A stretch of DNA of 27,078 nt from the IMG/VR virus record IMGVR_UViG_3300043444_000180, positions 1 through 27,078 of that record; one strand, given 5' to 3'. A program made the position numbers and the translations under genes. Shown in pieces: positions 1-22,763 of this stretch. The DNA is from a virus. Lineage: Duplodnaviria; Caudoviricetes. Each line of letters starts with the position of its first letter. Position 1 is the first letter of the stretch. The notes beneath the pieces were generated by a model. It was not told the DNA's origin and ran no database searches. It was given only the letters and a program-made list of their open reading frames with translations.

Positions 1-671
1 TTGTATATACCAGATGGTAACTGAACTTTATATTGATTTCTATTTAATTTATTTACAGCAGAGTCAACTAAATTTCCAGAATCATCTTTAATTGTGAATG
101 TAAATTCTGGCATTATATTATCAATAATCCAAGAACGATAAACGTCTTGTTGCATATCTTCAGCATCATTATTTGTTATAACAGTATCTGTCGCATCTAA
201 AGAAGTATCAGCATAGTATATAACTAAAACTGAATGCTCAAAATCAGTAGACTGTTTATCAAAACATTTATGAATAAAAATTGGAAGATAATTTTCGCTA
301 TATCTTGATACAATAGAATTATTCATACTCTGATGGAAATTATTATTTCCAGTGTAAACAGTTTTTGTGAATTCTAAAACTTCTAATGGATTTGTTATCT
401 TTTCAGTAGAAACATCAAAATCAACCATCCAAGCACAATTATCTGTTAATAGCGGAAAATCTGCTACAGTGAATGTTCTCTCATCAACATTTGTGAAACT
501 ACATTCAACAGTTTCTTCTCTAGTTAAATCTGGTCTAACTACTTTATCAACAGAAACTGTTATAGATTTATTTGCAGCATTGTAACCGACAGTTGTTCTG
601 TAATTGTTATTAATTCCTAGTTTATCTGAACCTTCTAAACCAGAAATTTTAGTTTTAATTATTTTAAACAT
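1..671 (-). CDS. Hypothetical protein, partial (at least 223 aa, runs off the left edge)
   Basis: Not in the ORF track. Hand translation from ATG 671 gives MFKIIKTKISGLEGSDKLGINNNYRTTVGYN...VQLPSGIY with no stop before the window edge. A GGAG Shine-Dalgarno (GGAGAAATAATG) precedes it, and it starts 11 nt after the stop of the Cys-rich gene. No family recognised. Confidence 0.8.
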   Translation of the reverse strand, partial: MFKIIKTKISGLEGSDKLGINNNYRTTVGYNAANKSITVSVDKVVRPDLTREETVECSFTNVDERTFTVADFPLLTDNCAWMVDFDVSTEKITNPLEVLEFTKTVYTGNNNFHQSMNNSIVSRYSENYLPIFIHKCFDKQSTDFEHSVLVIYYADTSLDATDTVITNNDAEDMQQDVYRSWIIDNIMPEFTFTIKDDSGNLVDSAVNKLNRNQYKVQLPSGIY

Positions 672-682
672 TATTTCTCCAA

Positions 683-1051
683 TTAGCAGTTACAGTTACA
701 TGCGCAGTTACAGTTACATGCGCAGTTACAGTTACAGTTTGTTCGATAGTATTTAAAGTGTCCCATTGTTTGGTCTTGAGAATCGTGACGTAAACCATCA
801 TTGTATGCAGTATTACGGAAGACGTTTAGACGCCAATCAGTTACATGCACGTTAATTGATATATCGCCAGCATCACAGTTACCACAGTTACAGTTACAGT
901 TACCATTACATGCGTTACATGCGCATGCCCAACCGCAGTTACCGTTACCTTCTGTAATGTTTCTATTACCACCATCTCCAGACCATCCCCAGAACACACC
1001 ATTAAGGTCTGTTCCGCTTGAGATCTTAAAACCAGTTGCGCTGATTGCCAT
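683..1051 (-). CDS. Cys/Asn-rich repeat protein (122 aa, 17 Cys), function unknown
   Basis: GGAG SD lies within the end of the fibre gene, and the start is 1 nt after the fibre stop (TAA T ATG). Two Cys clusters: aa39-59 CGWACACNACNGNCNCNCGNC (8 Cys) and aa105-122 NCNCNCACNCNCACNCNC (9 Cys). Confidence 0.85.
   Translation of the reverse strand: MAISATGFKISSGTDLNGVFWGWSGDGGNRNITEGNGNCGWACACNACNGNCNCNCGNCDAGDISINVHVTDWRLNVFRNTAYNDGLRHDSQDQTMGHFKYYRTNCNCNCACNCNCACNCNC
686..739. repeat. Coding tandem repeat, 18-bp unit GCAGTTACAGTTACATGC
   Basis: Two perfect copies (686-703, 704-721) and a third matching 15/18 (722-739). Encodes (A/N)CNCNC three times on the minus strand. Confidence 0.95.
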
Positions 1052-1052
1052 A

Positions 1053-2225
1053 TTAGTTCTCCAATTTCTCTACACGAGTAGTTAATTCTTTAATAGTTTT
1101 TTGTTGTTCTTTAATAGCTTCGATTAACAAACCAACGATATTAGCATAAGAAACTGTCTTATATCCATCAGCCTCACCAACGACTTCTGGAATAACAGAT
1201 TCAACTTCTTGTGCAATAAGACCAATTTCTGGCTTATTGTTTCTAGTATAAGAAACACCACGAAGTCTATTTACAACTTCTACAGCATTATTTAGCGTTT
1301 GGACATTCTCTTTTAATCTTGCGTCAGAAGTAGTTTGGTATGTTGTAGCCACAACATCAACGAATGTATTTGTAGTTCCAGCGAACACATTGTTCGCTGC
1401 TAGACGTGGAATATTCGCACCAACAGATAAAGCAGGAGCTCCTGCAACACCATCGCCATTCACAACGTCAATGTCGCCAATAACACCAGTAATTTCTCTA
1501 GAAACGATATTACCGTTAGAAACTCTAACAATTATACCATTAGTAGATAAACCAGAGAATCCAGATAAATCAGCATCGAATGGTTGAACATCTGTACCGA
1601 TAACTAAACCAAGAGTCGATCTAGCTGTTGACGCATCAGCATCATCTAATAAAGTTCTGGCAAAGGCAGTTAGTGATGTAGCTGCAGCTGTAGTAGAACT
1701 TGTAAAATATGGAATAGAGTCAGCTGTTAGTGTTACGCCAGAGATAGCCTGCAGTTGTTCATCGTAAGCCTGAACATCATAACCAATTGATAGTCCAAGA
1801 TTTGCTCTAGCGTTTGATGCGTTTGTAGCACCAGTACCACCTACAGAAACTGGAATAGAACCACCATTAATACTGATACTTCCAACTGTCAAGTTTCCAG
1901 AAAACGTACCAGAAGTTCCAGATAATGCTCCAGTTAGAATCAGTGAGTTTAGCGTCGAATTACCAGAAGAATCACGGGCAACGATAGAACTTTTGTCTGT
2001 CGAACCAGGAAGTGTTGATAAAGCTGATAGACCATCCAATAAATCTGAATCTAAACCAGAGCCAGTCCCATCAACAGTTTTAAGTTTTGTGAGAATGTCA
2101 GCTGCGTTGTAATCTGTAGCTGTTAGCTTTGTTGCTAATTCATTGTTTAAATTGGTGAAGTTAGCATCAACCTCAGCGTTTGTAAGAGGTGATCCCTTAA
2201 CTTGTCGGAGAACGAGTGTCGCCAT
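1053..2225 (-). CDS. Tail fibre protein with C-terminal intramolecular chaperone (peptidase S74 type)
   Basis: C-terminal TSDARLKEN...RLRGVSY...IGLIAQEVE...V.Y..IVGLLIEAIKE followed by a coiled coil is the S74 chaperone signature. The N-terminal KGSPLTNAEVDANF and GSGLDSDLLDG motifs are typical of fibres. Internal repeat ARxxLGLxIGxDVQxxD occurs twice. Confidence 0.9.
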   Translation of the reverse strand: MATLVLRQVKGSPLTNAEVDANFTNLNNELATKLTATDYNAADILTKLKTVDGTGSGLDSDLLDGLSALSTLPGSTDKSSIVARDSSGNSTLNSLILTGALSGTSGTFSGNLTVGSISINGGSIPVSVGGTGATNASNARANLGLSIGYDVQAYDEQLQAISGVTLTADSIPYFTSSTTAAATSLTAFARTLLDDADASTARSTLGLVIGTDVQPFDADLSGFSGLSTNGIIVRVSNGNIVSREITGVIGDIDVVNGDGVAGAPALSVGANIPRLAANNVFAGTTNTFVDVVATTYQTTSDARLKENVQTLNNAVEVVNRLRGVSYTRNNKPEIGLIAQEVESVIPEVVGEADGYKTVSYANIVGLLIEAIKEQQKTIKELTTRVEKLEN

Positions 2226-2240
2226 TATTTTCCCTTATTC

Positions 2241-2468
2241 TTAGCGATCTTTTAGTAACACAGTAAGCATCTGCTTAATGTCAGAAAGCTCTGATTTAAT
2301 ATTATTTATTTCTTCTGCCTGAGTCTTTATAATATTTTCTTTTTCTTCTGCAGCTTTACGGTGATTTATGTATTGGACATATTCAACCATACTAGTATTT
2401 ATGATGGCATTGGAAGAGGTATCTCTAACCAAACCATCATGACCCTGAACTTTAAGAAAATTTTCCAT
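2241..2468 (-). CDS. Small coiled-coil protein (75 aa), hypothetical
   Basis: Probable start is MENFLKV at 2468, overlapping the upstream stop (TAATG). KVQGHDGLVRD..SNAIIN followed by a heptad C-terminus. Resembles small ORFs I recall downstream of VrlC-like genes in T4-like phages. Confidence 0.75.
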   Translation of the reverse strand: MENFLKVQGHDGLVRDTSSNAIINTSMVEYVQYINHRKAAEEKENIIKTQAEEINNIKSELSDIKQMLTVLLKDR

Positions 2469-5400
2469 TATGCACAAGCAATAATTCGTAAATCTTTGAT
2501 TCTAGGAATTGCAGAACTATTTGTAGACTTCATAACAATTTTAACCTGAATCGCATCAAATGGGTTCAGATTATTCAATGAATAGTCAACATCATAGAAT
2601 GTTTCATTTCCATTCTCTACCTTAATGGCAGGGACAACTGGAGTTGCTAAAGTATATTTAGTCTTATCCAGTGTTCCAGCAGAACCTAAAGAAGTTTTAT
2701 AATAAACATCAACATCTGATCCAGAAGGAACATTAGCTGCAAAACGGATCTTCACGAATGTTGATGGAAGAGCCAACTTAACAGCGTTTGTTACATACTT
2801 AGATGCAGTAGAAGAACCGATTGGAGCAATCTCGTCTGTAAATAGGTTCACAGTTGATACTGTTGTAGCAATTACAGCAGCTTCGGTAGTGAATGTTACA
2901 CCAGATACAGTTATAGTTCCAGTTGTTCCGTTGTCAGTAACGTCAGTTACCAAGAATTGACCATTATTACCAACAGTTGTAGCAGACTCAATCTTAACAT
3001 ATTGACCGATACCAATTGTAGAAATTAGGTTTCTTACAGTTGAATCAGTAGATGTAATTGTAGAGCCAGAGAAGTTGAACGCTCCAGTTGCACCGCTGAA
3101 TAGTGTTGTGTAATCTACAGGAGTTACATCCACGTTAGCATGTGTAGGAGAGTTAATTCTGTTAGAAATAGCAACCAAAGACATACGCTGAGTATCTAGA
3201 ACTGGAGACAACGAGTCATTAGTTGAAGATAGGTTAACTGCAAATGTTACAGACTTGTTACCACCAAGAGAATTGTTTTCGTTAACTTCTGATGCAATCA
3301 AACGAGGGCTGTAGAAGTAGTTATTCTCATTAGCTAAACAGTCACCGAAACTTACGTCTTGGATGTAGGCAGTTTGAGTTCCGTCAACTGATGTACCAGA
3401 AGTAGTTTTAACAGAGTAGTTTACAGATGTTTCAGAGAAACTCTGAACCTGAGCGATTGGGTAAACAGCATCATATTGAACCTGACCAGTTGCACGAATA
3501 GTTGAACCACCAGCGTAGCCAGTAGCTGTCGCAGCTGTAGTAACTGTTATTGTGTAAGAATCTAGATCTACGTTAGCAACAGTATGAGTAGCATTAAACT
3601 GAGTAGAAGGAATACCGTTTAGAGTTCCAGTTGCACCAGAGATAATAACTTTAGACCCAGCTACTAAGCCATGGTTATCATGCCATACACGAACGATTGT
3701 AGAACCAGCAGTAGTCTGGAATGGATCAGCCACTAAAGACTTATATGGTAGAACATCGTTAACGAACTGAACTGTTCCAACAGCTGAAGTATCAAACTTA
3801 GCACGATGGATAGTAAACTTCAAATCTTGAGTTTGATCAGTTGTCCAAGTAGAAGCATTCTGAGACTTGAATAGAGAACCAGCATAAGGTTGTTCAGAGA
3901 TAGTTCTAGAAGTCCCTGGAACAACATCACCTACCTGAGAAATCCAGCACTTATATTTGTTAGAGTCAGATTGCAACACGATACAATATTCACCAGCGTC
4001 CTGAACATAAACTGGAGAAGTAAATCTGAATTGTGTAGGTGTGTCATACTTAGGAGTAGAAACACCATCTAGGTCTACAGTAGTTGTAGACAAGTTAATC
4101 TGTTCTGGATTAAGAGTTACACGTGAGAATGGTAGAACACGCTTACCTGGATATCCGTTAACAACTTCGCGAATTTCTAAAGTTACAGGAATTTGTGAGT
4201 CTTTAGAAGCAAAGAAAATATCAACTGCTGTCAAGAATGCGCCACCCTTGTTCTCAACCAAGAATGTTTGAGCAAGAGGGTCATACCAACCAGTATCAGA
4301 AATAACACGCTGAGAAGTTTCAACGATTGTTTGAGAATCTTGAACAACTTCTTGAGCAATCTCTGCATTACGAACAGCATTAACCAACGATTGACGAGTC
4401 TCGATAACACCTTCGGCTCTGTAGTTTGTTCTACCACGAGAAGTGTAATCACCAGTTGCAACTGAGTTGTCGATTAACTTAAATTCACGAGAACCAGTGC
4501 GGAAACGAACTGCATCAGTATTAGGGATATTGAATAGTAAATTGATATTACCATTCTTGTTTGATGTTAAAGTTCCACCAACTGTTGACAATGAAACAGA
4601 GTTAATTGTTGCAGTAGAGTTAGTGATAGAACCAGTAATCTGTTCGTTAGTTTGGAATGTTCCAACAATATTAACTACGTATAGTGCTTTAGCTCCAGTA
4701 TCTGAGTCTAACTCTGTACCAACAACTACAGCTGTAGCTCCAGATGTAACACCAGTGATAACATCACCTTTGTTTAAACATACCTGAGAGTCGCCAGCGA
4801 TTCTACGAGCAGTCTCTGAAGAAGTACCACCAACATTACTTTCAAAGTCAAACGCTTGAGTTCCTGTGTAAGTAATTTTAGATGCTGGAGTACAGTAAGA
4901 AGAAACATCGATGTTATCGAAGTATGGATAGAAACGAGTTTGCGGTTTTAGACCACGAACCTGAACCAATACATTTCTTGAGCGAATATATGGAATAACC
5001 GCAGTAGATAATACACGATCAGCAACTACTTGCTTATCAACCTTAGCTACAACAGAACTTCTAACACCAGTTCTTGATTGTCCGATTTCAGTAGCAAAGA
5101 ACTCAGCTGTAACCTGACGAGCTGGACCATTACCGAAACGTGAAACGATTTCGCTACGAGAAAGACCTCTAACTCCTTGTGACACAGGAACTCCAGACCA
5201 CTGAGTCTGCCATGAGTTCCAAACAGTTCCAAGCACACCAGCTTTTTCAGCAAGTGTAGCGATTGTTGAGAAGTTACCTTCAATGTTATTCACAATATCT
5301 GGACGACGATCAACCTCAAACCACTCATCGGCAGCTGGGTTCATCTTAACATCACCAATAAAGGTGAAGATAGCGAATGGATTAATATTTTCTAAACGAG

Positions 5401-8400
5401 AAGCGAATTCTTGTTTAACTAAAACAACATCTTCAAGAATTGGTAATGTAACAACATCGCCATATTGAGCGTAGTTGCTAGCTTCTCTTTGTGTGTCGTT
5501 TGAGTTTTTCTCGATTAAGTTTACGTTAGTCATTGTGAAGAATGGACGTAATTCGCCTTTCTCCATATCAACTGAACACTTATAGTCTGGAGAAGAAACA
5601 TTACCAACACCATGACCAGAGAAGTTATCAACAATGAAACCATTCTTCAAACGATCTAAACCAGTTGAATCAGAAATCTTCAATGATTGAGTTTCTTGTT
5701 CCAACAATGATAGAGAAGTGTAGTATTCTAAGTTATCAATACGCTTTTCTAGCTTACCGATGTCACGCATTGTGTAGCGTTTGTTATCTACTTTAGAAAT
5801 CGTTACGTTCTCTGAAGAAGTACCGAATGTGTATGGCTCAAGTGTTAACTTGTAAAGAACCATACCAGTAGCTGGATCTTCTGGCTCGCCAGGAGTTAAA
5901 GAAGATGTTCCAGAAATACTAAAGAAGTTACCGTTGATGTCAACAGCAACTTTCTCTTTTCTTGATAGGTAGTAAGTGAAGTCTGTTCTAACATCGGCAC
6001 CACGTTTAGGTACTAATACCGCAGAACCAGAACCAGTGAATGTTGTTCCTGCGTCATCAATTCGTGGACGGAAGTCTAAGGCATCACGCAATTCAGCTGG
6101 GATGTCGTTGTAAGAAACCTCAGATGGATATGAATTTACAGAGCAATAATCACCAGTAGAATGTGTGAAGTATTCAAACACAACTTCGATTGGTGCTGAA
6201 GGGGGAACGTAAGTATCTTTTAGGTTAATTCTACCTAGATCGTAATAAGTAGAACGTTGACCATTATCAAAACTATAACGATCTGAAATATCAATATCGT
6301 AAGTAGAACCTGGACTTGCGAATGTTCCAGACTTCATCTTAATAGAAACGATTCTCCATGCATCAGACTTACCTAAAGAAAGGGTAGTCGAAGTAGCAGT
6401 AGCCTGAGTTGTGAATGTTACTGTCGCAGTATTAAGAGTTTTTGTTTTTTCTGTATTTGTAGAACCAGTTTTATTAACGGCACCGATAACTACGAATGGT
6501 CTTGATGCATAAGCTCCTGGGATCGTAAATGTAACAGAAGCACCAGATGGAACAATCGCACTTGGTAATACAACGTCACCAGTGGTATTGTCAATCAAAA
6601 TGTAGTTACCAGAAACGGCACCTGATGCCATAGATCCAGATGATGTTGATACTGTCAGAGTACAGTTACCACCAGAAACAGAAGAAGTTGTTCCTGTAAA
6701 TCTTTCATAAACAGTATAAGAAGTATCATTAGTTCCTAGAGAACTTCTTAAAGAACGAATAGCATAGTATGGCAATGAGAATACCAAACTGTCTTTATCT
6801 GATTCAAATAATTTTGTTTCAACTAAGCTATATGTAGCACCAGTTGTAGTTAAAGACGCATCAATCGTTAATGAGTTCTGAGAAGCAATCGCAGTAACAC
6901 GATACAATCCACTAGCAACAGAAATGTAGTCGCCGACGATTAAATCTGTCTGGAAAGAAGTTCCAGTTCCAGTTACAGTTGTGCCAGCAGCAGTTACAGA
7001 ACCAATTAATTGTGTTGTCAATGGGTTTACATCAGCAGTAAAACTTGTTGCTGCAGAACCACCATTGAAGAAAATAGATTTAACATGACGATCGAATGTG
7101 TATCCGTTTGTCATCTTAACATCAAATAGGGAAACTTTCCAAACAGCTGAAGCTGAACCGATAGTTCCGTTGTCCCACTCGATGAAACGAACACGAGCAG
7201 TACCAATCTTAGTGCCAACTGCAGTTCCACGACCAGCTGAACCAGTAACTCTATTGTATAGATCTACTGTATCGAATGTGTTAATCGGAGGTAGGTTGTT
7301 AAGGTTAGTTGCGTAGATAAAGTTACCAACAGTTGCAGTAACAAACGCATTATCAGCCTGAACATAATCACGTGCTTTATTAACAGCTACGTATTCTGTA
7401 GAAATCTTTTCAATTTCGTAACCACGAACATATGCTTTTCCTGGCTCTAAACCAATCGCCAACTTATTAACATCACCAGTTCTAAAGATACCACGATTAT
7501 AAACTGGATTTTCATTATATTCCCAGTTGATACCAGTAGAACCTGGACCATCGTAAGCAGTGCCAGAAGTATGTGTCGGAGCAATAGAAACTGAAGTTCC
7601 GCTATTTTTAGATACGTATGTTTTACCAGCATTGGTAACTACGTCACCCAACAAGAAAGATGTAGTTCCAGTCCAAGCACCACGATCGTTGTTACGGTGT
7701 TCGCGAACATCAATAGCAAACTCACGAACAGTGTAATCACCAGATTCGTCGTAAGTTCTACGTGCCAATGTTTTTTCTAATTCAGCATATTCTGTTTTAG
7801 AAACTTGTTTCTGATTGATACCTTCGTTAACACGAAGAAGTTCAATGAAGTCTTTATCTTCAACTGAATTCAAAGGCAACTTAGCCAATGTTAAGTCAAT
7901 GAAGTAACGATGTGCACCTGGAGCAGCAAAGTTATAACTGTTTTGAGCATTATCTAATAAGCTATCTTCATCTTCTGGAGTTACAACTGTTTCTTGAACA
8001 GCCAAACCAACACGATATGATGGTGTGTCGGAATATTTCTCTAAAATTAAAGAATGAGTGTCAACTAAAACGAAGTGTCCGTTAACATAGTAAACGCCAC
8101 GTTGGATTGTTACGATTGAACCAACACCAGTCGGAGTTGTTTCTAATGGAGAAACTTGAACAGAATATAATGAATCTTCTGTTGTGATAACTTCATCAGG
8201 AGCAAATGTTTTTGTTGTTGTATTTGTACCAGAGTTCTTATAACGAACGTAAATTGTAGTCGGTTCTGTAGTTTCTTGGCTTTGAGTTTTAATTACTTCT
8301 GCCTTTAGACCACTACTACCAACAAGAATTTTACCTTCTAGGTTTGATAAGAATGTTTCTACTGCAACACCAGCGTACAATGGATTTAATTTTACATATT

Positions 8401-8614
8401 GTGCTTTGTTGTCTAGAGAAATCTGTCCTGGAATAACCATCGCACCTTGTTTGAATACGTGGTCACCATGTCTGGAAATTTGTTTCTGTAAAATAGTTTG
8501 CATCTGAGTAAGCTCTCTGGCTTGCACAGCGAAACTTGGACGGAATAGAATACGGTAAAATTTCTGATTCTCGTCGTAATCGTCATTATACGGTTCTGTA
8601 TTGAAATCGATCAT
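2468..8614 (-). CDS. Large virion structural protein, VrlC-like / DUF4815 family (2048 aa)
   Basis: Motifs FNTEPYNDDYD..KFYRILFRP.FAVQARELTQMQTILQ.QI, APGAHR, LARRTYDESGDY, GKAYVRGYEI, KRYTMRDIGKLEKRI.NLEYYT.LSLLE, KNGFIVDNF, DPLAQTF and GSLFKSQNASTWT. Located after gp8. Confidence 0.85.
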   Translation of the reverse strand: MIDFNTEPYNDDYDENQKFYRILFRPSFAVQARELTQMQTILQKQISRHGDHVFKQGAMVIPGQISLDNKAQYVKLNPLYAGVAVETFLSNLEGKILVGSSGLKAEVIKTQSQETTEPTTIYVRYKNSGTNTTTKTFAPDEVITTEDSLYSVQVSPLETTPTGVGSIVTIQRGVYYVNGHFVLVDTHSLILEKYSDTPSYRVGLAVQETVVTPEDEDSLLDNAQNSYNFAAPGAHRYFIDLTLAKLPLNSVEDKDFIELLRVNEGINQKQVSKTEYAELEKTLARRTYDESGDYTVREFAIDVREHRNNDRGAWTGTTSFLLGDVVTNAGKTYVSKNSGTSVSIAPTHTSGTAYDGPGSTGINWEYNENPVYNRGIFRTGDVNKLAIGLEPGKAYVRGYEIEKISTEYVAVNKARDYVQADNAFVTATVGNFIYATNLNNLPPINTFDTVDLYNRVTGSAGRGTAVGTKIGTARVRFIEWDNGTIGSASAVWKVSLFDVKMTNGYTFDRHVKSIFFNGGSAATSFTADVNPLTTQLIGSVTAAGTTVTGTGTSFQTDLIVGDYISVASGLYRVTAIASQNSLTIDASLTTTGATYSLVETKLFESDKDSLVFSLPYYAIRSLRSSLGTNDTSYTVYERFTGTTSSVSGGNCTLTVSTSSGSMASGAVSGNYILIDNTTGDVVLPSAIVPSGASVTFTIPGAYASRPFVVIGAVNKTGSTNTEKTKTLNTATVTFTTQATATSTTLSLGKSDAWRIVSIKMKSGTFASPGSTYDIDISDRYSFDNGQRSTYYDLGRINLKDTYVPPSAPIEVVFEYFTHSTGDYCSVNSYPSEVSYNDIPAELRDALDFRPRIDDAGTTFTGSGSAVLVPKRGADVRTDFTYYLSRKEKVAVDINGNFFSISGTSSLTPGEPEDPATGMVLYKLTLEPYTFGTSSENVTISKVDNKRYTMRDIGKLEKRIDNLEYYTSLSLLEQETQSLKISDSTGLDRLKNGFIVDNFSGHGVGNVSSPDYKCSVDMEKGELRPFFTMTNVNLIEKNSNDTQREASNYAQYGDVVTLPILEDVVLVKQEFASRLENINPFAIFTFIGDVKMNPAADEWFEVDRRPDIVNNIEGNFSTIATLAEKAGVLGTVWNSWQTQWSGVPVSQGVRGLSRSEIVSRFGNGPARQVTAEFFATEIGQSRTGVRSSVVAKVDKQVVADRVLSTAVIPYIRSRNVLVQVRGLKPQTRFYPYFDNIDVSSYCTPASKITYTGTQAFDFESNVGGTSSETARRIAGDSQVCLNKGDVITGVTSGATAVVVGTELDSDTGAKALYVVNIVGTFQTNEQITGSITNSTATINSVSLSTVGGTLTSNKNGNINLLFNIPNTDAVRFRTGSREFKLIDNSVATGDYTSRGRTNYRAEGVIETRQSLVNAVRNAEIAQEVVQDSQTIVETSQRVISDTGWYDPLAQTFLVENKGGAFLTAVDIFFASKDSQIPVTLEIREVVNGYPGKRVLPFSRVTLNPEQINLSTTTVDLDGVSTPKYDTPTQFRFTSPVYVQDAGEYCIVLQSDSNKYKCWISQVGDVVPGTSRTISEQPYAGSLFKSQNASTWTTDQTQDLKFTIHRAKFDTSAVGTVQFVNDVLPYKSLVADPFQTTAGSTIVRVWHDNHGLVAGSKVIISGATGTLNGIPSTQFNATHTVANVDLDSYTITVTTAATATGYAGGSTIRATGQVQYDAVYPIAQVQSFSETSVNYSVKTTSGTSVDGTQTAYIQDVSFGDCLANENNYFYSPRLIASEVNENNSLGGNKSVTFAVNLSSTNDSLSPVLDTQRMSLVAISNRINSPTHANVDVTPVDYTTLFSGATGAFNFSGSTITSTDSTVRNLISTIGIGQYVKIESATTVGNNGQFLVTDVTDNGTTGTITVSGVTFTTEAAVIATTVSTVNLFTDEIAPIGSSTASKYVTNAVKLALPSTFVKIRFAANVPSGSDVDVYYKTSLGSAGTLDKTKYTLATPVVPAIKVENGNETFYDVDYSLNNLNPFDAIQVKIVMKSTNSSAIPRIKDLRIIACA

Positions 8615-11699: not shown

Positions 11700-13523
11700 T
11701 TAAAAATTGATTGGTTCGCCGACGTATTGTTCTAAGAACCAACCAGCGTCAGCATAAGGGTTTATAATCATAAAACCACCAGCATCGACAGGTACAAACT
11801 CGTCAACACCAGAAATTGTAGGGTCAATATATTTAGTCACAGTTAGGTAAGGTATCTCTGTAACAACAGGAATATCTTCTAGTAGCTTACCAAAATCACG
11901 CTTAAACGACCCATTACCATTATCAGACATTAACTGAATATCTGTTAATAACTTACCGAAATCTTTCTGTTGGATACCATCGTCACCCAAAAGAACTGAT
12001 TCGCCATTACCATTTAATAACTTACCGAAATCTCGTTTAGATATCTCATCTGAATATGACGTAGTATCTGCAAGTGGTTTATGTAAACCCTTAGTTGAAA
12101 CGAAATCGTTTGCTAGTGATACACTATGCTCAAATCCTTTAGTTAAGAAGATTTCAGCGATAGCATCTTCAATGAACTGTTCTTCTTGCTCAGTTACTGC
12201 AAGAATCTTAATCATTGACTCTAATTCTAATCCAATATCGAACTCATTACGAACGTCATATTCACCAAAAACAGCCATACCAGCTGGGTGGACCAACGCT
12301 TTAACCAAAGATTTATATGCGTCTAGACGCTCGTCAATCTTAAGAACATATGAGAATGCCTGATAGTAACGACTGTCTTGAATGAAAATAGCATCGTTCA
12401 AGAAACCATCGTTATTAATGTAATAACCTGGATATTTACCAAGAGGTCCCAAAGAAACTTTAATTACCGCTGGTTCAAATGGACTCTCAATAGCAGCTTC
12501 TTGGTTACCAAATTCTCTAAGAACTTCACCAGCATAAGTTCCATCAATAGCAGTTAACGCATAATCTGCTCTATTTAATGTTCCAGATTCAGAGAAACCA
12601 TCAGTAGTTTCACTAATAGAAATATTACCACCAATAACCTGTAGGGTAGTTCCACCAGTTCCCGTAGTAGATTGACCTAAGTCGGCATAAATCGTTGATG
12701 TGAAATCTGTAGAATATCCAGTACCAAATTTAATAAACTCAGCTGCTAATATACCACCCTCAGAACTGGCTTTGGTAACTTTCATAATAGAACCATATCC
12801 CTTACCATTTCTGATTGGATATAATTGTCCTACTCTAAAACCAGTACCACGCTGTAAAATTTCTAACTTTGATGTAGTAGCTAATATTTCAGCTGTGAAA
12901 TATATTGTTTCTGTTTGGTAACGAAGTCTGTCTCCGATAGAAATATCACCGAAGAATCTACGATCAATGTAAAATTCGTAAATGTCTGGAGCGATCTCAA
13001 CTACACGCTCAACTTCAACCTCAACATATTGTCTTCTATCAATAAGAACACGAATAATTTTATTTGGTGTAATTACATCGATTAGTTTACCAACAACCTC
13101 ATCTGGGTGGCCAGTTAAAATTTTACAAATAATAGAAACGTCTTGGTTCCACTTACCATCAGAAGCACGAAGCATCTGCTTGGATGGATACTCAACAGTA
13201 ACATCTTTATTGAAAAGTAATCTGAACAACAACTTAAAAGATTCTTCTGAACCCTTTGCTAAGTAGTGTTCTTTAATATGTTGTAATAAAAATCTTTCAG
13301 AAACAACAGTTGTTGGTAGATTTACTGCCAACTCATTTTTGAAATGTTTAATGAAAGATTCTAGAGTCGTGTCTAAATCTCTTAGCGTTTTTATATCTGG
13401 AGTTTCTCCGTCCAGATAATCATAATACGCTTTTAAAAATTGAACGAACGTCTGATGGTCTTCTCTAACGAACTCAGGTAACTGACTCGCTACAAGTGAA
13501 GAAATTCTTGGTCTAGTTATCAT
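11700..13523 (-). CDS. gp7: Baseplate wedge subunit gp7-like (607 aa)
   Basis: SQLPEFVREDH.TFVQFLKAYY, IKEHYLAKGSEESFKLLFRLLF, LRASDGKW and IQDSRYYQAFSYVLK...LVHPAG. ATGA overlap with gp6. Confidence 0.8.
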   Translation of the reverse strand: MITRPRISSLVASQLPEFVREDHQTFVQFLKAYYDYLDGETPDIKTLRDLDTTLESFIKHFKNELAVNLPTTVVSERFLLQHIKEHYLAKGSEESFKLLFRLLFNKDVTVEYPSKQMLRASDGKWNQDVSIICKILTGHPDEVVGKLIDVITPNKIIRVLIDRRQYVEVEVERVVEIAPDIYEFYIDRRFFGDISIGDRLRYQTETIYFTAEILATTSKLEILQRGTGFRVGQLYPIRNGKGYGSIMKVTKASSEGGILAAEFIKFGTGYSTDFTSTIYADLGQSTTGTGGTTLQVIGGNISISETTDGFSESGTLNRADYALTAIDGTYAGEVLREFGNQEAAIESPFEPAVIKVSLGPLGKYPGYYINNDGFLNDAIFIQDSRYYQAFSYVLKIDERLDAYKSLVKALVHPAGMAVFGEYDVRNEFDIGLELESMIKILAVTEQEEQFIEDAIAEIFLTKGFEHSVSLANDFVSTKGLHKPLADTTSYSDEISKRDFGKLLNGNGESVLLGDDGIQQKDFGKLLTDIQLMSDNGNGSFKRDFGKLLEDIPVVTEIPYLTVTKYIDPTISGVDEFVPVDAGGFMIINPYADAGWFLEQYVGEPINF

Positions 13524-15349
13524 GTTCTACTTGGAGAGAATGTGTAATTGTAACCACCACGTAAATCGCCATTAGCTGACTTATCTGCAATCGCTGTCAC
13601 TGTTAGGTGATCTCTTGCGATTTGTGCAATTTGAGTCAACGCTGACACAACATCATTAGAGCTTGGTTTGATAGAAACTTCAAAATCAATATCAGCTAAA
13701 GCTACGATATGTAAATTTCTAATATCTAAAACACCCTTATCATAATAAACAAATCCGATAGATTCGTCAACAATAATCTTTGTTGCATTAGCACCGAATT
13801 TGTATAAACGAAGATTACCAACGCCATCATCATCAATGTAATGAATATCATCAGATCCAGAGATGTAGAAACCAGTTGTAGTAACAGCACCCTCTGGTAA
13901 ACCCGCAGTATAAATTGGGTTAATGATGTTTAATAGGTATTGAGCTGACACATTATATCTTGGTTGTAACTTTCTTCTGATAGTCACTGTTGTAATATTA
14001 TTTAGGATACCCTGCTCACACTCATCAATTAAACGAGATAGTTTAGAGAATCTGAACACACCATCAAAGTTTTGTAAATCAGAATCATCATAATCAAAAA
14101 TTGTATTTGTTACGATTGTCTCAATTTCAGCAGCAGTTCTTGTAGTTTCTCTTTCGTTGAAGTATACTTTAACATCTAAAGAAATATTAATGAACTCTGG
14201 ATCTACGATTTCTGGTATAACAGAAACTACGTTTTTATTTGCTAATATTGTTGAGTTTAAATTAGCTTTCTGTAACTGTGTTAGTTTACTCGCATCACGT
14301 GGTTTGATACAAACAAAAATCTTACCATAAACAGGTGGGTTATTATCTTCACCACCCCAAACAGAAACTGCTTGGGCTTCTGGCATTGCTGAGTAAATGA
14401 TCGCCTTATAATCTTCTGGAGTTACTGCTCGGTTTTGAGCAGCATAAATTCTTGGTGCATTAAATCTGATACTTTCGATATCTTCTGCAGAAGAACCACT
14501 CTGAGCAATACTCAAGCATGTAATGTTAACAGTTGAGTTACTCAATAGAGTTGGACCAGTGTATGTGAAAACTCTGGCTCCATTTGGTGCATCTAAACTT
14601 GATGTGAAATAGTCGATGTGGATAACATTACCATTTGATAATTTTCTACCGATAATACCATCACCGAATGTTAATTCGTAAAGACCATCGTCGATTTCTT
14701 TAACGAAATATACTTTAGTATCTTTATCAGCTGTAGTTATAGAAGAAGAACTAATATATGTTTCATATAAAGATGAAGACGCAGATTCTTGAACTTTAAC
14801 ACGCAATGTTGTCAAATCAACATCAGCATTAGGAATTACATATCTTGCACCAGAAGAAACTGTATACTTAAATGACAGTGGTGTTCCCTCAACTACATTA
14901 ACATTATCAAATGTGTAGGAAGTGCCAGAACCAGAGATAGTATAAGATTCTGTAGTATGGAATGTATAAGAAGTTCCATCAACATTGGTATTGAATGTTG
15001 AATATGCTGGAAGTGTTAAACTGCTTGGTCCTAAAACACCATTATTTACAGTTATACGTAGAGACGCTTCTGCACACTTAGCTGATCTTGGTACATAACC
15101 AAGCATTTTAGCAAGAGAAACTACGCTGTTTCTTTTGCTGGCAGAGTCAAGGAACATCTCATTTATTGTTAGATTATTATAAAGAGCATTGTAGTGTGTA
15201 TTATATGCTAAAACATCTAACAAAATAGATAAACCAGATCCCTCAAAATCGTAATCTTGAAATTCTGTTTGTCCTTGTAAAAACGTCTTTAGATTATCTT
15301 TGATTTTATCAAAATCTAATTCGGTTACATTGATCTTTTTATTTGCCAT
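13520..15349 (-). CDS. gp6: Baseplate wedge subunit gp6
   Basis: ELDFDKIK.NLK.FL..Q.EFQDYDFEGSGLSILLDVLAYNTHY, NEMFLDSA..RNSVVSLAK.LGY.P, FGDGIIG, AQNRAVT.EDY and VWGGEDN.PP.YGK. Confidence 0.95.
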   Translation of the reverse strand: MANKKINVTELDFDKIKDNLKTFLQGQTEFQDYDFEGSGLSILLDVLAYNTHYNALYNNLTINEMFLDSASKRNSVVSLAKMLGYVPRSAKCAEASLRITVNNGVLGPSSLTLPAYSTFNTNVDGTSYTFHTTESYTISGSGTSYTFDNVNVVEGTPLSFKYTVSSGARYVIPNADVDLTTLRVKVQESASSSLYETYISSSSITTADKDTKVYFVKEIDDGLYELTFGDGIIGRKLSNGNVIHIDYFTSSLDAPNGARVFTYTGPTLLSNSTVNITCLSIAQSGSSAEDIESIRFNAPRIYAAQNRAVTPEDYKAIIYSAMPEAQAVSVWGGEDNNPPVYGKIFVCIKPRDASKLTQLQKANLNSTILANKNVVSVIPEIVDPEFINISLDVKVYFNERETTRTAAEIETIVTNTIFDYDDSDLQNFDGVFRFSKLSRLIDECEQGILNNITTVTIRRKLQPRYNVSAQYLLNIINPIYTAGLPEGAVTTTGFYISGSDDIHYIDDDGVGNLRLYKFGANATKIIVDESIGFVYYDKGVLDIRNLHIVALADIDFEVSIKPSSNDVVSALTQIAQIARDHLTVTAIADKSANGDLRGGYNYTFSPSRT

Positions 15350-15741
15350 TATCGGGTTCTCTCTAATACTAGGTCAAGAGTTAAAGGGCTCTCGGTATTA
15401 ACTATTTTAAATTCTATTGTCACATACAGTGAATTTGTATCTGGACTTAAATTAACAAATACATCTAACAATTGAACACGTGGTTCAAAGTTAGTAATAA
15501 CATCAACTATTGCTCTTTGAACCATGTTCTCTAACATAGGTGTTGCTGGTTCAAACAATAAACGCTTTATTGGGGAACCAATTTCACTATGAAATGGTCT
15601 CTCATAGTTTGATGTTAAAATTAGGTTTTTTAGACTAGTCTTAATTGCATTCTCGTCATATCTACGAGTAATGTCCTTAGTCACTGGATGAGCAGTGAAA
15701 TTGAGGTCTAAATCAGAGAATATTCTTGTATTACGTGCCAT
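15349..15741 (-). CDS. gp25: Baseplate wedge subunit gp25 (130 aa)
   Basis: FSDLDLNF..HP.TKDI, AIK.SLKNLILT...ERPF...IGS and I.NFEPRV. Likely start is MARNTR at 15741, because the 15792 start in the track overlaps the PAAR gene. Confidence 0.93.
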   Translation of the reverse strand: MARNTRIFSDLDLNFTAHPVTKDITRRYDENAIKTSLKNLILTSNYERPFHSEIGSPIKRLLFEPATPMLENMVQRAIVDVITNFEPRVQLLDVFVNLSPDTNSLYVTIEFKIVNTESPLTLDLVLERTR

Positions 15742-15745
15742 TTTA

Positions 15746-15754
15746 TTATTTAGC
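15746..15754 (-). promoter_or_regulatory. Putative late promoter GCTAAATAA
   Basis: Minus strand reads GCTAAATAA TAAA ATG in the gap between PAAR and gp25. Same CTAAATAA core as at 22277, 22315 and 22755. Confidence 0.65.
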
Positions 15755-15755
15755 T

Positions 15756-16058
15756 TTATTCTAGAAAGGAATTGTGAGAACCTTGGCCACATGCGTCGCC
15801 ACAGGAAATATTATCGCCAATCCTTGCTACTGGTTTACCTTCTATAAAGGACTTCGTAGAGCCACTACTAATGAATCTACCATTTTGTGGATGAGTAGAA
15901 TTACCACAAGTATGTGCAGAAAATTGGCTGGCTTCGTCTTGAAGACCTACTAAAATACCATTGATATAACTTTTGGTCGCTGCTGTAGTGACCAAATTTG
16001 TTGGTGGGAAACACCCATGTCCAGTTGACGTATCTCCAAGTCTAACTACTGCTGGCAT
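15756..16058 (-). CDS. PAAR-repeat spike tip protein (gp5.4-like)
   Basis: MPAVVRLGD.STGHGCFPP...AHTC...HP...GS.K.FIEGKPVARIGD.I.CG....QGS. His/Cys metal ligands. Located between gp5 and gp25. Confidence 0.92.
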   Translation of the reverse strand: MPAVVRLGDTSTGHGCFPPTNLVTTAATKSYINGILVGLQDEASQFSAHTCGNSTHPQNGRFISSGSTKSFIEGKPVARIGDNISCGDACGQGSHNSFLE

Positions 16059-16497
16059 CTGTTGACCTCACGTATGATTGTAGAGTATTTTTTCCAGTTG
16101 TCCAATCATTCTGAACTGTTATTGTGTAAACCTGAGAGTCTACTACAGTCTCTTCATCCATAGCTTTTGCTGTATAGTTAAAGATTTTAGTTCTTGATCT
16201 GTCGGCACCATATTTAACCATCTCATATAGATTAACAACCTTACCAAACTTGTCTGTTGTTACAAGTTGTTTACCCTGATTCAAATATTGAATGTTATTA
16301 TTAAAGCTGTCTGTGTAATAACCATAGATAGTATTACCAGAAACTAACACTGTACTAACAACCTCTTCAGCTGTAATTATAACTGGATATGAAACAGTTT
16401 CCATAGTCATTTCATCAGTAACTTCGTAGGTGACAGAAAACGAAAAATTTACTTCTTCGTTAACTGTCCCAAGATTTGTTTCTGTTGGTGTGAACAT
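16042..16497 (-). CDS. Hypothetical protein (151 aa, beta-rich)
   Basis: ORF coupled to the gp5 stop (TAATG) and overlapping the PAAR start. No family recognised. Confidence 0.75.
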   Translation of the reverse strand: MFTPTETNLGTVNEEVNFSFSVTYEVTDEMTMETVSYPVIITAEEVVSTVLVSGNTIYGYYTDSFNNNIQYLNQGKQLVTTDKFGKVVNLYEMVKYGADRSRTKIFNYTAKAMDEETVVDSQVYTITVQNDWTTGKNTLQSYVRSTDASSS

Positions 16498-19319
16498 TAA
16501 CTTGATCCGAACAAGAATAGACCACGACTTCCTGGCTTAATATTTCCAGAAGCATCAACTGACTTATCGTCAATCATAGTGAATGCTTGTTTCTTATTAC
16601 CTTCAGCTGAATATGATATGTGAATCCAATTTTGCCATCCAGGACCTGGATTATAATTAGCACCTGGTTTTCTGTATTCTAAAATTATTTGATTATATGG
16701 TAAAACCTTTTCTATCTGAACAGCCAACTTCCACATTTCTTCAAAAGAACGCTTAGGGTTATATCTAAAGTCGATCGCTCTACCTTTATTATGATCAGAA
16801 TTATTGGTACCATTTCTTAAGCCAGAGTTAATGCACCATAACCCCTTAGAAGACTGTGGTGCGAATTTTCCACTAGTTGGTCCAAGTAATTCATATAATG
16901 GTTCGCATATGTTCTCTGATAGAACAGCCAAGTTTGCAATTAAATCTTGTTTGGTATAAAGTTTACCCATAACAGTTGCGTCACGAAGAATTACTGATGG
17001 TTCTACTAATTGACCAACTGTAAAGTTTTTAGATAACTTGTATGATGGAGGGAAATCTGTTGTATTATAAAATGGTGCAGTTTCAATCTTCTTACCTTCA
17101 ACCTTATTGGGTGGAGGAACAATAGCTTCTTGAGCTTCTCCATTTTTGTTTTCTGGAGCTTTATATGCTGGAGTATCGTATTGTTTTTCTTTTTCCAATT
17201 TACCAGCTGGAGTTTCCCACTCATCTGGTGTTTCGAACTTAGCAATCTCATCAAAGGAACGTTCTGGTGGTTCTAGGTTAGAGAACGAAGGAACTACTGC
17301 ATTAATCAATTCTGGTGCAGTTAAACCAGTAGTGGGTGCGTCTTCAACCTCAGCTTGTCCATTTGCAAATTGCATTTCAGCGTAATCTGCATTGAAGTTT
17401 CCACCAGCATTAACAGCAATATTACCTGCAGATTTAACTGACCAGTCAGCAGCAGAGTCATGTATCTGATAACCAGTAGTCTTTGTTGTTAGATTTGTGG
17501 TTTCAATATTGTAGTCACCATCAACTTTAAGTTTGTAATCACCACCGACAGTCATGTCTAGATTACCAGCAACACCTAACTCAGCATCACCTTTTAGTGC
17601 GATGTTACTACGTCCTTCTACTTCAATCTTAGCGTCGCCTTGGCATAGAATGTTAATGTTACCACCAACAGTTAAGTTTGCAGTTCCAACAACATAAATG
17701 TTATTGTTTCTTAAAACGATTTGATAACCATCACCAACGATAAAGTTTAACTGAGAACCATTAGGATCTATCTCTAGGTATGTTCCCTTACGATGATATA
17801 AGTGTATACGTTCACCATCAGGAGAATCATCAAACTCCATAATGTGACCAGATTCAGATTCAAATACTTTGTTGTATGGATATATTGCGTTGTATGGTGA
17901 TAATGGTTGCGACCAGTTTTTACCACCAGCAACTGGAATATCTTGTTTTCTTGTCGCATCTTTAAATTTAAAACATGTTCCGTCAATAATACCACGAGCC
18001 AATCTATTAGTATCAGCTTCGTTCATATGATCACGTAATGGATACTTGCCAGTTGGATCTGTGAATCCAAATTGCGTGGCATTACCAGAACGATCTTCTT
18101 TATACGCTTCTTGTTTATCTAAAGGTTGTTTCGCAATTTCTTCTGGAGATAAGTTAGGTTCTGTCGCTGTTGCGTTTTTATTAGTAGATACTGGATCTGT
18201 TGACGAACCTAAGAAATACTCATAGTATTGTTGTTTTTTCAATGCAATGTCTGGCGTGTTTATACCAACAGCATTTTTAGCAGCCTGGAAAAATCCTGGC
18301 TCGTACATCAATCTTTCCCAACCTTTAACTCTATCTTTAATGTAAATAGCAGCAATTAAGGCAGATGTTTCTAAATCATCATCTAGTGAATCTGGATTAT
18401 TAACAATATCAATGTTTAACCCAGCAGCAGTACCAAGTTTTTGATAACGCTCGTAGTTCCCACGACCAGTCAACTGAATAAAACCACGACCATAGTACTT
18501 ACCACCATCAGCGTCAATTTTATTACCCAAGAAATTTTTACCACGATAAGTTGGTCCATAGAAGAATGAGAAGAAGTCTTCTCTTGACAAACCTTTCTTA
18601 ACTGCGTAAGAATACTCATCTAGAATTTGCTGAGTAGCATTGGGGAAGATTTGTTTTAATCTTGTTGGATTGTAATTATATGCTTCTTTTTGAGGAACCC
18701 ATTTTGATTCGCCACCAGCAATACCCAACAATGCACACTTTGCATACTTTGTTGTCAATCCAACTTTATCACACGCAGCAATTAATGCTTTAATACCAGC
18801 TGATGCATTAGATCCAGAACCAGACTTAGGTGGTGGATTAGTTGGAATTTCTGTAGGAACAACAGTTGGTGATAATGGTGTTGATGGTGTGTTTGGTGCA
18901 GAGTTATTAGCCTGATTAGTTCCAGTTGTAATTGGGTTACCAGAACCATCTAAAACTGGATTACCAGAAGAATCAGTTAAGATACCTTCTTGAGGAATAA
19001 TATCATCTGAAGAATCTTCAATTGCTCGCTCACCAGATTTAGTTTGAGGGATACCACCGATAGTTCCCAACATAACTGGTTGTTGAAGATCTTCGTCTCT
19101 GAAAATAATAACAACCCATGTTCCTGGAACTGGACCAGTTGGAGAATGACCTAAACCACTAACAGCTGCTGATGTAACTGGCTGCATAGGATAAGCCCAT
19201 GGTAAATCTTCAGTTGGCAGTAAAGTTTTATTGTCTGTATGAAGACCAACTACGCGAACCTGACATCTACCAAGTTTTAATGGATCGTTACGATTTTCGA
19301 CTACGCCAGTGTATAACAT
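16497..19319 (-). CDS. gp5: Baseplate central spike gp5 with GH19-type glycoside hydrolase and C-terminal M15-type peptidase domains (940 aa)
   Basis: OB fold GVVENRNDPLKLGRCQVRV.G.H...LPWA. GH19-like YYGRGFIQLTGRGNY. YPYNKVFESESGHIMEFDDSP..ERIHLYHRKGT. VxG octapeptide beta-helix repeats. C-terminal LSKNFT...INSGLR...SDHNKGRAID...WIHISY. Confidence 0.92.
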   Translation of the reverse strand: MLYTGVVENRNDPLKLGRCQVRVVGLHTDNKTLLPTEDLPWAYPMQPVTSAAVSGLGHSPTGPVPGTWVVIIFRDEDLQQPVMLGTIGGIPQTKSGERAIEDSSDDIIPQEGILTDSSGNPVLDGSGNPITTGTNQANNSAPNTPSTPLSPTVVPTEIPTNPPPKSGSGSNASAGIKALIAACDKVGLTTKYAKCALLGIAGGESKWVPQKEAYNYNPTRLKQIFPNATQQILDEYSYAVKKGLSREDFFSFFYGPTYRGKNFLGNKIDADGGKYYGRGFIQLTGRGNYERYQKLGTAAGLNIDIVNNPDSLDDDLETSALIAAIYIKDRVKGWERLMYEPGFFQAAKNAVGINTPDIALKKQQYYEYFLGSSTDPVSTNKNATATEPNLSPEEIAKQPLDKQEAYKEDRSGNATQFGFTDPTGKYPLRDHMNEADTNRLARGIIDGTCFKFKDATRKQDIPVAGGKNWSQPLSPYNAIYPYNKVFESESGHIMEFDDSPDGERIHLYHRKGTYLEIDPNGSQLNFIVGDGYQIVLRNNNIYVVGTANLTVGGNINILCQGDAKIEVEGRSNIALKGDAELGVAGNLDMTVGGDYKLKVDGDYNIETTNLTTKTTGYQIHDSAADWSVKSAGNIAVNAGGNFNADYAEMQFANGQAEVEDAPTTGLTAPELINAVVPSFSNLEPPERSFDEIAKFETPDEWETPAGKLEKEKQYDTPAYKAPENKNGEAQEAIVPPPNKVEGKKIETAPFYNTTDFPPSYKLSKNFTVGQLVEPSVILRDATVMGKLYTKQDLIANLAVLSENICEPLYELLGPTSGKFAPQSSKGLWCINSGLRNGTNNSDHNKGRAIDFRYNPKRSFEEMWKLAVQIEKVLPYNQIILEYRKPGANYNPGPGWQNWIHISYSAEGNKKQAFTMIDDKSVDASGNIKPGSRGLFLFGSS

Positions 19320-22316: not shown

Positions 22317-22763
22317 ATGTTTCACAAAAGATTATACAAACCTCTATTTCCAGAGAAGTATTCTGGCGATCCAACCAATATCATATTACGAAGTTCGTGG
22401 GAGACTAAGTTCGCCAACTGGTGTGATAGAAACCCTTCGGTTTTGAAGTGGAAATCTGAGGAAACAGTAGTCCCTTATAGATGTCCAACTGACGATAGAT
22501 TACATAGATACTTTATAGATTTTCAGATACAAATTAGACAAAAAGATGGGTTATTGAAAACTTATCTTATAGAAGTAAAACCACATAAACAAACAATTCC
22601 CCCAGTTTATCCTGGACGCCAGACTCAACGCTACCTGACAGAATCAATGACTTTTATCAAAAATCAGGCTAAGTGGAAAGCAGCTACTGAGTACGCCAAG
22701 GATAGGGGTTGGGAATTTAAAATCATAACTGAGTATGAACTCGGTCTTGCAACACCTAAATAA
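22317..22763 (+). CDS. gp4: Head completion protein gp4 (TnsA-like nuclease fold)
   Basis: P..PEKY.GDP.NI..RSSWE.KF..WCD.NP.V..W.SEE..VPY, HRYF.DF, LIEVKP.KQ and NQAKWKAA. Confidence 0.93.
   Translation: MFHKRLYKPLFPEKYSGDPTNIILRSSWETKFANWCDRNPSVLKWKSEETVVPYRCPTDDRLHRYFIDFQIQIRQKDGLLKTYLIEVKPHKQTIPPVYPGRQTQRYLTESMTFIKNQAKWKAATEYAKDRGWEFKIITEYELGLATPK
22755..22763 (+). promoter_or_regulatory. Putative late promoter CCTAAATAA upstream of gp2
   Basis: CCTAAATAA TTAA ATG. Overlaps the gp4 stop, and no SD is visible before gp2. Confidence 0.6.

Follow-up and report, generated by a model that had tools for sequence, protein, structure and literature searches.

What is a protein whose C-terminus carries a cysteine at every second position doing directly behind a phage tail fibre? 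The question is raised by a viral DNA of 27,078 bases, IMG/VR record IMGVR_UViG_3300043444_000180. This stretch, here called the window, is the complete viral record, and its contig end falls inside the gene next to the protein in question, cutting off the left flank. The protein has 122 residues, 17 of them Cys, and ends in an alternating Asn-Cys array, here called the ladder. Its sequence and its relatives suggest that it is probably a stand-alone fibre-tip module, and that it serves as the substrate of a radical S-adenosylmethionine (SAM)/SPASM enzyme encoded by the phage beyond the left end of the window. Of the three core components of this system, the window contains two: the ladder protein and most of an accessory protein, a0. 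Three genes, all on the minus strand, make up the left end, and their features are as follows.

1053..2225, minus strand: tail fibre of 390 residues, with a C-terminal S74 intramolecular self-cleaving chaperone at residues 300-349
1059..1062, minus strand: GGAG, serving the ladder gene as ribosome-binding site and located within the last part of the fibre gene (read from the sequence)
683..1051, minus strand: Asn-Cys ladder protein, 122 residues with 17 Cys; putative stand-alone fibre-tip module and predicted enzyme substrate
938..1051, minus strand: Cys-free N-terminus of the ladder protein (residues 1-38), with the conserved motif ATGF..S.GTDLNG.FW.W
875..937, minus strand: first Cys cluster (residues 39-59), eight Cys at 39, 43, 45, 48, 52, 54, 56 and 59
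686..739, minus strand: C-terminal (N/A-C)9 ladder (residues 105-122), nine Cys at 106, 108 ... 122, the final residue being Cys
686..736: perfect 18-nucleotide tandem repeat encoding the ladder, 2.8 copies with 100% matches (Tandem Repeats Finder)
3..671, minus strand: accessory a0, first 223 of 297 residues; the contig end removes 74 residues

Is this open reading frame (ORF) a gene at all? Its ATG (1049-1051) starts one nucleotide past the TAA of the fibre gene (1053-1055), and the initial annotation, which had described a 122-residue ORF with 17 Cys and its own Shine-Dalgarno sequence at this distance from the fibre stop, was confirmed from the sequence, with the ORF on the minus strand. 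The Cys layout it gave also holds for the Cys-free 38 residues, the eight-Cys cluster and the alternating nine-Cys end; only the spacer needed correction, to 46 residues (between Cys59 and Cys106) rather than 45. The protein ends ...YYRT-NCNCNCACNCNCACNCNC-stop. Cys makes up 17 of its 122 residues, against 46 of 8791 (0.52%) for the window's 22 remaining ORFs (binomial P = 2.5e-19). Compared with nine relatives, the ratio of nonsynonymous to synonymous substitution rates (dN/dS) is 0.08-0.18, with synonymous sites near saturation. Across 26 ladder sequences 29 columns are invariant, many of them outside the repeats: M1, A5, G7, G13, D15 and W21 in the N-terminus, C39, C43, C45, C54 and C59 in the first cluster, and N105 to C110 plus C112, C114 and C116 in the ladder. 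The 46-residue segment between the Cys clusters is conserved in the manner of a folded domain. On this pattern of change the ladder ORF is a real gene under purifying selection. In Pfam (E up to 1) and among the PHROGs (E up to 0.01) it has no match, no NCBIfam model fits it, and no signal peptide is apparent from reading the N-terminus alone, without a predictor.

The length of the ladder is less fixed than the rest. One relative (protein P0002) equals the protein of another locus (L010:10001-10369; L numbers denote the loci of this analysis) minus one ACNCNC unit, that is, one 18-nucleotide repeat, and the relatives carry from 4 to 11 xC units, where x is the residue before each Cys. Slippage within the repeat may tune the length of the tip.

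Where, then, is the modifying enzyme? The ladder protein has ten homologues in a set of 5.8 billion proteins; in viral contigs it occurs at 27 loci, of which 25 contain the complete ORF. Gene order is fixed in these loci: an ~800-residue, an ~2050-residue and an ~78-residue protein, the S74 fibre, the ladder protein and a0 (275-390 residues, variable). The initial annotation had proposed that the ladder protein is the substrate of a modification cassette continuing left of the window, and had suggested looking there for a radical SAM/SPASM gene. The relatives bear this out: of the 25 loci, 22 (with 17 distinct ladder proteins) have such an enzyme downstream of the ladder, and the remaining three end, like the window, before the enzyme position. 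It follows a0 directly in 20 loci and stands ~4.5 kilobases (kb) further on in two (L015, L018). The phage's own left flank was not recovered, an exact 40-mer of the window's left end giving no match among metagenome contigs. Longer, fused relatives of the 122-residue protein were also not found, which is weak evidence, and a tblastn search of cultured phages with the ladder protein and the window's a0, run with the low-complexity filter on, gave no match.

Does the association hold beyond one lineage? It was tested in both directions. In the forward direction an alignment of the enzyme retrieved ~573 relatives in viral contigs, from which 79 loci (31-68% G+C) were kept and 78 scanned in six frames for an alternating array of at least four Cys on the enzyme's strand and upstream of it. 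Where at least 2.5 kb of upstream DNA is available, 58 of 60 loci have such an array; with a limit of 1.5 kb the count is 63 of 68, and the ten loci below that limit have none. The background was 11 arrays in 1.84 million six-frame residues, seven of which are antisense reads of the same arrays, and two misses of the test (L068, L103) hold three-Cys arrays. In the reverse direction the DNA pattern for NCNCNCNC yielded 119 new loci; 63 with less than 3 kb on one side were dropped and 56 kept. A C-terminal ladder was here an array ending no more than 11 residues from the stop in an ORF of at least 65 residues, and an enzyme was counted within 6 kb. It was found near 33 of 34 C-terminal ladders, and near none of the 22 matches that were internal or in short ORFs. 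In the marine lineage of the window and in unrelated phages alike, ladder protein, a0 and enzyme occur as a set.

The neighbour tabulation proposed in the initial annotation separates C-terminal ladders from other matches, and links to a modifying enzyme and to fibres were found, in 58 of 60 loci for the enzyme and in 8 of 14 tested carriers for tail-fibre PHROGs. The short-ORF matches deserve a word of their own: microsatellites coding for NCNCNCNC also exist in viral contigs (L111, L112, L114, L116, L119 and others), several of them from giant viruses (GVMAG contigs), and a radical SAM enzyme is near none of them.

What does the ladder look like in those other lineages? There it stands at the end of proteins of 113-726 residues, and the 8 of 14 carriers just mentioned match tail-fibre families. 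It ends 0-7 residues before the stop or stands directly before a Hint domain; a Hint-like domain of ~156-160 residues directly follows the ladder in L044, L050 and L071. In these three loci and in gp028 of phage JWF (L029:3760-5211), the last Cys of the ladder is the first residue of the Hint-like domain, and after Hint cleavage the fibre would end in the ladder. Two cultured phages, JWF (Achromobacter) and RSP15 (Ralstonia), carry the enzyme at 37-38% identity within their fibre module. In the gp36-like fibre of JWF the ladder reads ...NCNCDCNCNCSC and continues with FPAGTMV..., at the start of the Hint domain, and the RSP15 side fibre ends ...NCQCGN.

The sequences of the ladders are uniform. 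Among 53 distinct ladders 47 start with NCNCNC, and RT is the commonest preceding pair; of 386 x residues 252 are N, 85 A, 36 D, 6 Q and 7 others. From the start, the x residues and the end position, a family of fibre-tip ladder modules was defined in the present analysis. The window protein has the C-terminal [RY][TSV]-NCNCNC start, has N, A or D at x, and ends its array within 11 residues of the C-terminus, as the family definition has it. Its NG..W.W motif also aligns with the tip modules of other lineages (hhalign, over 12 columns only, probability 96%). Judged by these positions, the ladder is a feature of the fibres' free distal end, exposed by the stop codon or by predicted self-cleavage, and the window protein looks like the same tip module freed from its shaft. 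The leader-plus-core reading of the initial annotation is not general, the ladders of other lineages ending long fibres that have no leader.

The enzyme itself has ~490 residues. It matches PF04055 and the SPASM domain TIGR04085, the latter with 36.6 and 36.9 bits where the cut-off is 27; ~75 residues precede the radical SAM core. In six enzymes, from relatives and the two cultured phages, the CxxxCxxC residues C86, C90 and C93 and the seven SPASM Cys (C336, C355, C389, C392, C398, C402, C414) are invariant. Maturases that crosslink peptides or proteins carry these two motifs as well. Its top NCBIfam matches, all below threshold, are PapB, DynA, the nif11 maturase, the anaerobic sulfatase-maturating enzyme (anSME), QhpD and CcpM. 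Its best relative of solved structure is CteB (5WGG, E 2e-10), followed by anSME.

The third component is a0. A 297-residue protein in the protein collection is 100% identical over the 223 residues in the window, and the window copy falls in a BLAST cluster of 24 together with the gene after the ladder carrier in many other lineages. A hidden Markov model (HMM) detects the family at 50 of the 56 enzyme-seeded loci that extend 4 kb or more upstream; the HMM matches ORF047 of RSP15 (E 7e-26) and has no match in JWF, and no Pfam or PHROG family was found for a0. AlphaFold2 modelled a homologue (L011, 47% identical to the window copy) with a predicted local distance difference test score (pLDDT) of 91.5 and a predicted template modelling score (pTM) of 0.86, from an alignment in which the L014 row begins at an in-frame ATG eight codons downstream of the called ORF start. 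Residues 180-296 of the model form an immunoglobulin (Ig)-like beta-sandwich (VIA-align, best Z 9.0, with many ties at 7-8). The matches from Z 9.0 down to ~7 are generic Ig-like domains, many PapD-like pilus chaperones and major sperm protein (MSP) domains, and residues 1-175 were barely covered. Neither Foldseek against the PDB (E up to 0.001) nor the ESM Atlas (0.8 or above) gave a hit. A complex prediction for the L011 a0 and ladder protein returned an interface score (ipSAE) of 0.00 in both runs, which were without controls and carry no weight for or against binding. On a tentative reading, a0 may hold or chaperone the ladder. A variable receptor-binding tip was considered as well and rejected for now, since conservation is even along the length of a0 and does not drop from the N-terminus to the C-terminus.

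Other enzymes keep company with these genes. A 2-oxoglutarate (2OG)-Fe(II) oxygenase of the PF13759 type stands alongside the enzyme in 29 of 56 enzyme-seeded loci; the 2OG oxygenase of the marine lineage is of another kind. In seven enzyme-seeded loci (L043:6980-7987, L054:6963-7979 and five others) the gene directly before the SPASM enzyme encodes a second radical SAM protein (~338 residues, PF04055).

How might these parts work together? During late gene expression the enzyme would act on the ladder, most likely joining Cys sulfur to the beta-carbon of a neighbouring Asn, Ala or Asp, that is, making thioethers of the ranthionine type. The product would be a rigid, covalently stapled tip, resistant to reduction and to proteases. 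The Ig-like a0 might hold or present the ladder, and the finished ladder protein would take its place at the distal end of the S74 fibre or close by, at the point of contact with the host. Thioether chemistry is favoured because the nearest curated and solved relatives of the enzyme are thioether synthases, because the ladder is a dense NxxC array (every N-C-N-C is an NxxC), and because its x residues match the acceptor set of NxxcB, a beta-thioether synthase that uses Asn natively and tolerates Ala, Gln and Asp according to the portions of the source drawn on here (PMC9389541). In the window protein the pattern N-x-x-C fits at N105-C108, N107-C110, N109-C112, N113-C116, N115-C118 and N119-C122, as a matter of sequence. 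Both the chemistry of modification and the location of the ladder in the virion we infer from sequence. The more general proposal, to which we give a little less than an even chance, is that many unrelated phage lineages staple their fibre tip: the enzyme would turn the Asn-Cys ladder into overlapping thioether rings, so that a modification of the kind known from peptides made on ribosomes and modified after translation (RiPPs) builds a part of the virion, with slippage setting its length and self-cleavage by Hint or S74 domains exposing the ladder in some.

Several points weigh against these proposals. The enzyme lies outside the window, and its presence in the phage of the window is deduced from relatives; the 22 loci of that lineage share inherited synteny and are not independent; independent evidence is supplied by the other lineages alone. 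Among the enzyme-seeded loci whose upstream DNA is complete, one (L072) lacks a convincing ladder, and among the C-terminal ladders one (L182) is without an enzyme inside 6 kb. The AlphaFold2 monomer of the ladder protein, built on 26 sequences, reached pLDDT 41.5 and pTM 0.16, with no fold nameable. Ala is frequent at x, hence not every unit can bear the same Asn-linked bond. The enzyme reaches no NCBIfam equivalog cut-off, and its active site differs from those of the two enzymes compared with it. By the six-residue catalytic-proximity scheme of Precord et al. 2023 (PMC10288494, as given in the part of the paper used here), mapped onto the phage enzyme through a phmmer alignment to 5WGG, the enzyme has N94, W133, V163, S187, Q356 and N357 where CteB has F112, F152, T186, S210, H363 and Q364 and anSME has F, Q, Q, S, D and F. 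One of the six positions is identical to CteB, three others show conservative changes (F to W, H to Q, Q to N), and the fit to anSME is no better. The profile does not assign the enzyme to the thioether synthases already known, and the enzyme has, by this comparison, an active-site make-up of its own.

Other chemistry is conceivable. Might the enzyme modify the ladder by forming formylglycine, as anSME does, by sactionine links to an alpha-carbon, by epimerisation, or by a C-terminal reaction such as oxidative decarboxylation? The presence of anSME among the best family and structure matches, the departure from CteB at five of six proximity positions, and the fact that ladders always lie at the free C-terminus (0-11 residues) or just before a self-cleaving Hint domain would all suit such a reaction; the 2OG-Fe(II) oxygenase and, in seven loci, the second radical SAM protein hint that there is perhaps more than one. 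On the other side, there is no sulfatase motif of the CxPxR type, x is confined to N, A, D and Q, the acceptors known for a beta-thioether synthase, and the closest solved and curated relatives are thioether-forming maturases. We consider a different chemistry unlikely.

Could the ladder instead serve chiefly to bind metal, as the initial annotation's alternative of a multi-metal-binding virion component has it, with the free thiolates of several chains holding Fe, Zn or Cu in the tip and the enzyme secondary or unrelated? Arrays of CxC are a typical feature of metallothioneins, and HxH motifs hold iron in the tip of the T4 long fibre. The AlphaFold2 monomer does not fold, as if partners or ions were needed, and the sections used here of the report on CrpA, a crosslinked Cys-rich protein, have its authors suggesting that it may bind metals (PMC13692751). 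What such a reading leaves unexplained is the coupling to one enzyme family (58 of 60 loci in one direction, 33 of 34 versus 0 of 22 in the other) if the Cys stay free; in addition, the ladder protein matches no metallothionein family in Pfam at E up to 1 or in NCBIfam. As the main function of the ladder, metal binding is distinctly unlikely, and it could coexist with modification.

A classical secreted RiPP, a bacteriocin or signal made of a 38-residue leader and a Cys core and released from the infected cell to act outside the virion, fares worse and is very improbable. The Cys-free N-terminus followed by Cys-rich segments beside a SPASM maturase fits it, and a cyanophage paper, in the passages relied on here, classes a 'radical SAM maturase' under 'antibiotic synthesis genes' (PMC12801897). 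Against it, the same ladder ends proteins of tail-fibre families elsewhere (8 of 14 tested), the annotated neighbours include no protease or exporter, the gene lies inside the baseplate and fibre block, and the 46-residue segment between the clusters is conserved like a folded domain. Finally, that a hexanucleotide or 18-nucleotide DNA repeat merely reads as NCNC by chance, as the perfect tandem repeat and the 22 short-ORF or internal NCNCNCNC matches in viral contigs might suggest, is scarcely credible given a dN/dS of 0.08-0.18 over the whole ORF, 29 invariant columns in 26 sequences including non-repeat parts, the conserved gene order and a start coupled to the fibre stop.

How does the proposed tip module compare with systems already described? 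The closest in chemistry would be NxxcB/NxxcA, a streptococcal radical SAM RiPP in which Cys sulfur is joined to the Asn beta-carbon. The N-x-x-C register is common to both, the x residues N, A, D and Q of the ladder are acceptors that NxxcB uses or tolerates (PMC9389541, within the text used), and NxxcB, like the phage enzyme, is a radical SAM enzyme with auxiliary clusters, a likeness of enzyme class. Unlike NxxcA, a short peptide with separate NxxC motifs, the phage substrate is a 122-residue protein or a whole fibre with 4-11 overlapping units, and its setting is a phage virion module.

The closest precedent for the substrate is CrpC/CrpA of Methanococcus voltae (Dieter et al. 2026, PMC13692751), in which, by the sections of the paper used here, a SPASM enzyme crosslinks a whole Cys-rich protein by installing ranthionine links. 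CrpA and the ladder protein are alike in being protein-sized, Cys-rich substrates with repetitive C-terminal Cys motifs, and in the archaeal system a second, neighbouring protein raises the extent of modification. CrpA differs in having 17-residue repeats with CxxQ/D motifs and no xC ladder, and in being archaeal and cellular; the phage enzyme scores 44.6-54.4 bits against the CrpC family TIGR04463, whose cut-off is 525, and the paper makes no mention of phages.

The ranthipeptide maturases CteB (of SCIFF peptides) and PapB share the architecture of the phage enzyme, a radical SAM core with a seven-Cys SPASM domain. PapB is its best NCBIfam match (E 5e-18 to 2e-22), far below the equivalog cut-off, and CteB differs from it at five of the six catalytic-proximity residues. 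Recognition of a leader through a RiPP recognition element (RRE) cannot apply to ladders on long fibres. In QhpD/QhpC, too, a protein subunit is crosslinked by the enzyme, QhpD.

From the side of phage structure, the comparison that comes to mind is gp38 of T2/S16-like phages, a small Gly-rich protein that caps the tip of the fibre and whose gene follows that of the distal fibre. The ladder protein is likewise small, encoded directly after a fibre gene and part of a T4-like module. It is unlike gp38 in being Cys-rich rather than Gly-rich, in following a fibre that has its own S74 chaperone, and in matching neither GP38 nor Gp38_N in Pfam at E up to 1.

The setting of the module in the window is that of a marine T4-like myovirus, judged from its genes; the gp6-type baseplate protein is ~40% identical to its counterparts in Methylophilales phage Melnitz and in pelagimyophages. 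The baseplate and fibre block includes gp5-like hub, PAAR, gp25, gp6, gp53 and gp51-like genes. The fibre at 1053..2225 matches Peptidase_S74 (PF13884, E 2.9e-15) as well as tail-fibre PHROGs. Two genes ahead of it, at 2468-8614 on the minus strand, lies a 2048-residue structural protein (phrog_358, DUF4815) that is kept in all relatives at 52-89% identity. The gp5-like hub (16497-19319, minus strand; Gp5_OB) has a weak chitinase class I or endolysin-like stretch at residues ~255-340, in the place expected for the cell-puncturing lysozyme domain. At the turn between two divergent blocks of structural genes, a plus-strand gene (22317-22763) encodes a 148-residue protein whose N-terminal domain is of the TnsA-like endonuclease type (PF08722, E 3.7e-22).

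In the relatives, the marine lineage continues after the enzyme with an ~107-residue protein, a DctP-type protein, an ~360-residue PP-loop-like protein and a 2OG oxygenase, and then more fibre genes. In L004 these are a DctP-type solute-binding protein of the tripartite ATP-independent periplasmic (TRAP) transporter class (13335-14282, plus strand; PF03480, E 1e-43), downstream of the enzyme, the ~360-residue protein (14345-15424, plus strand) with faint similarity to PP-loop ATPases of the LarE, Asn synthase or QueC kind, and a 2OG-Fe(II) oxygenase on the opposite strand (15402-16016, minus). Two genes of the fatty-acid-desaturase family (PF00487) and others stand between a0 and the enzyme in L015 (12308-13815, plus strand) and its counterparts in L018, where the desaturase genes replace the DctP block. 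The DctP, PP-loop-like and 2OG oxygenase genes may either tailor the ladder or be metabolic.

What would be new here, as far as sequence comparison goes, is a known pairing, a SPASM maturase and a Cys-rich substrate, applied to the fibre tip of a virion. The literature searched, as covered by its main texts, says nothing of Asn-Cys ladders or of a radical SAM enzyme that acts on the fibres of phages, and radical-chemistry modification of tail fibres is absent from its accounts of phage assembly and host recognition. The cyanophage paper, in the parts drawn on, puts its 'radical SAM maturase' under antibiotic synthesis genes without a link to fibres (PMC12801897). If the present proposal is true, such genes, now listed as metabolic or antibiotic in phage papers like this one, would call for a different reading.

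The module is compact, a ladder, an Ig-like accessory and an enzyme, and is therefore directly testable. If the proposal is true, these phages would add a large and easily recognised family of SPASM substrates that are proteins rather than peptides, and, if the ladder is crosslinked, its rings would represent a new class of covalent reinforcement at the very place where the virus meets its host.

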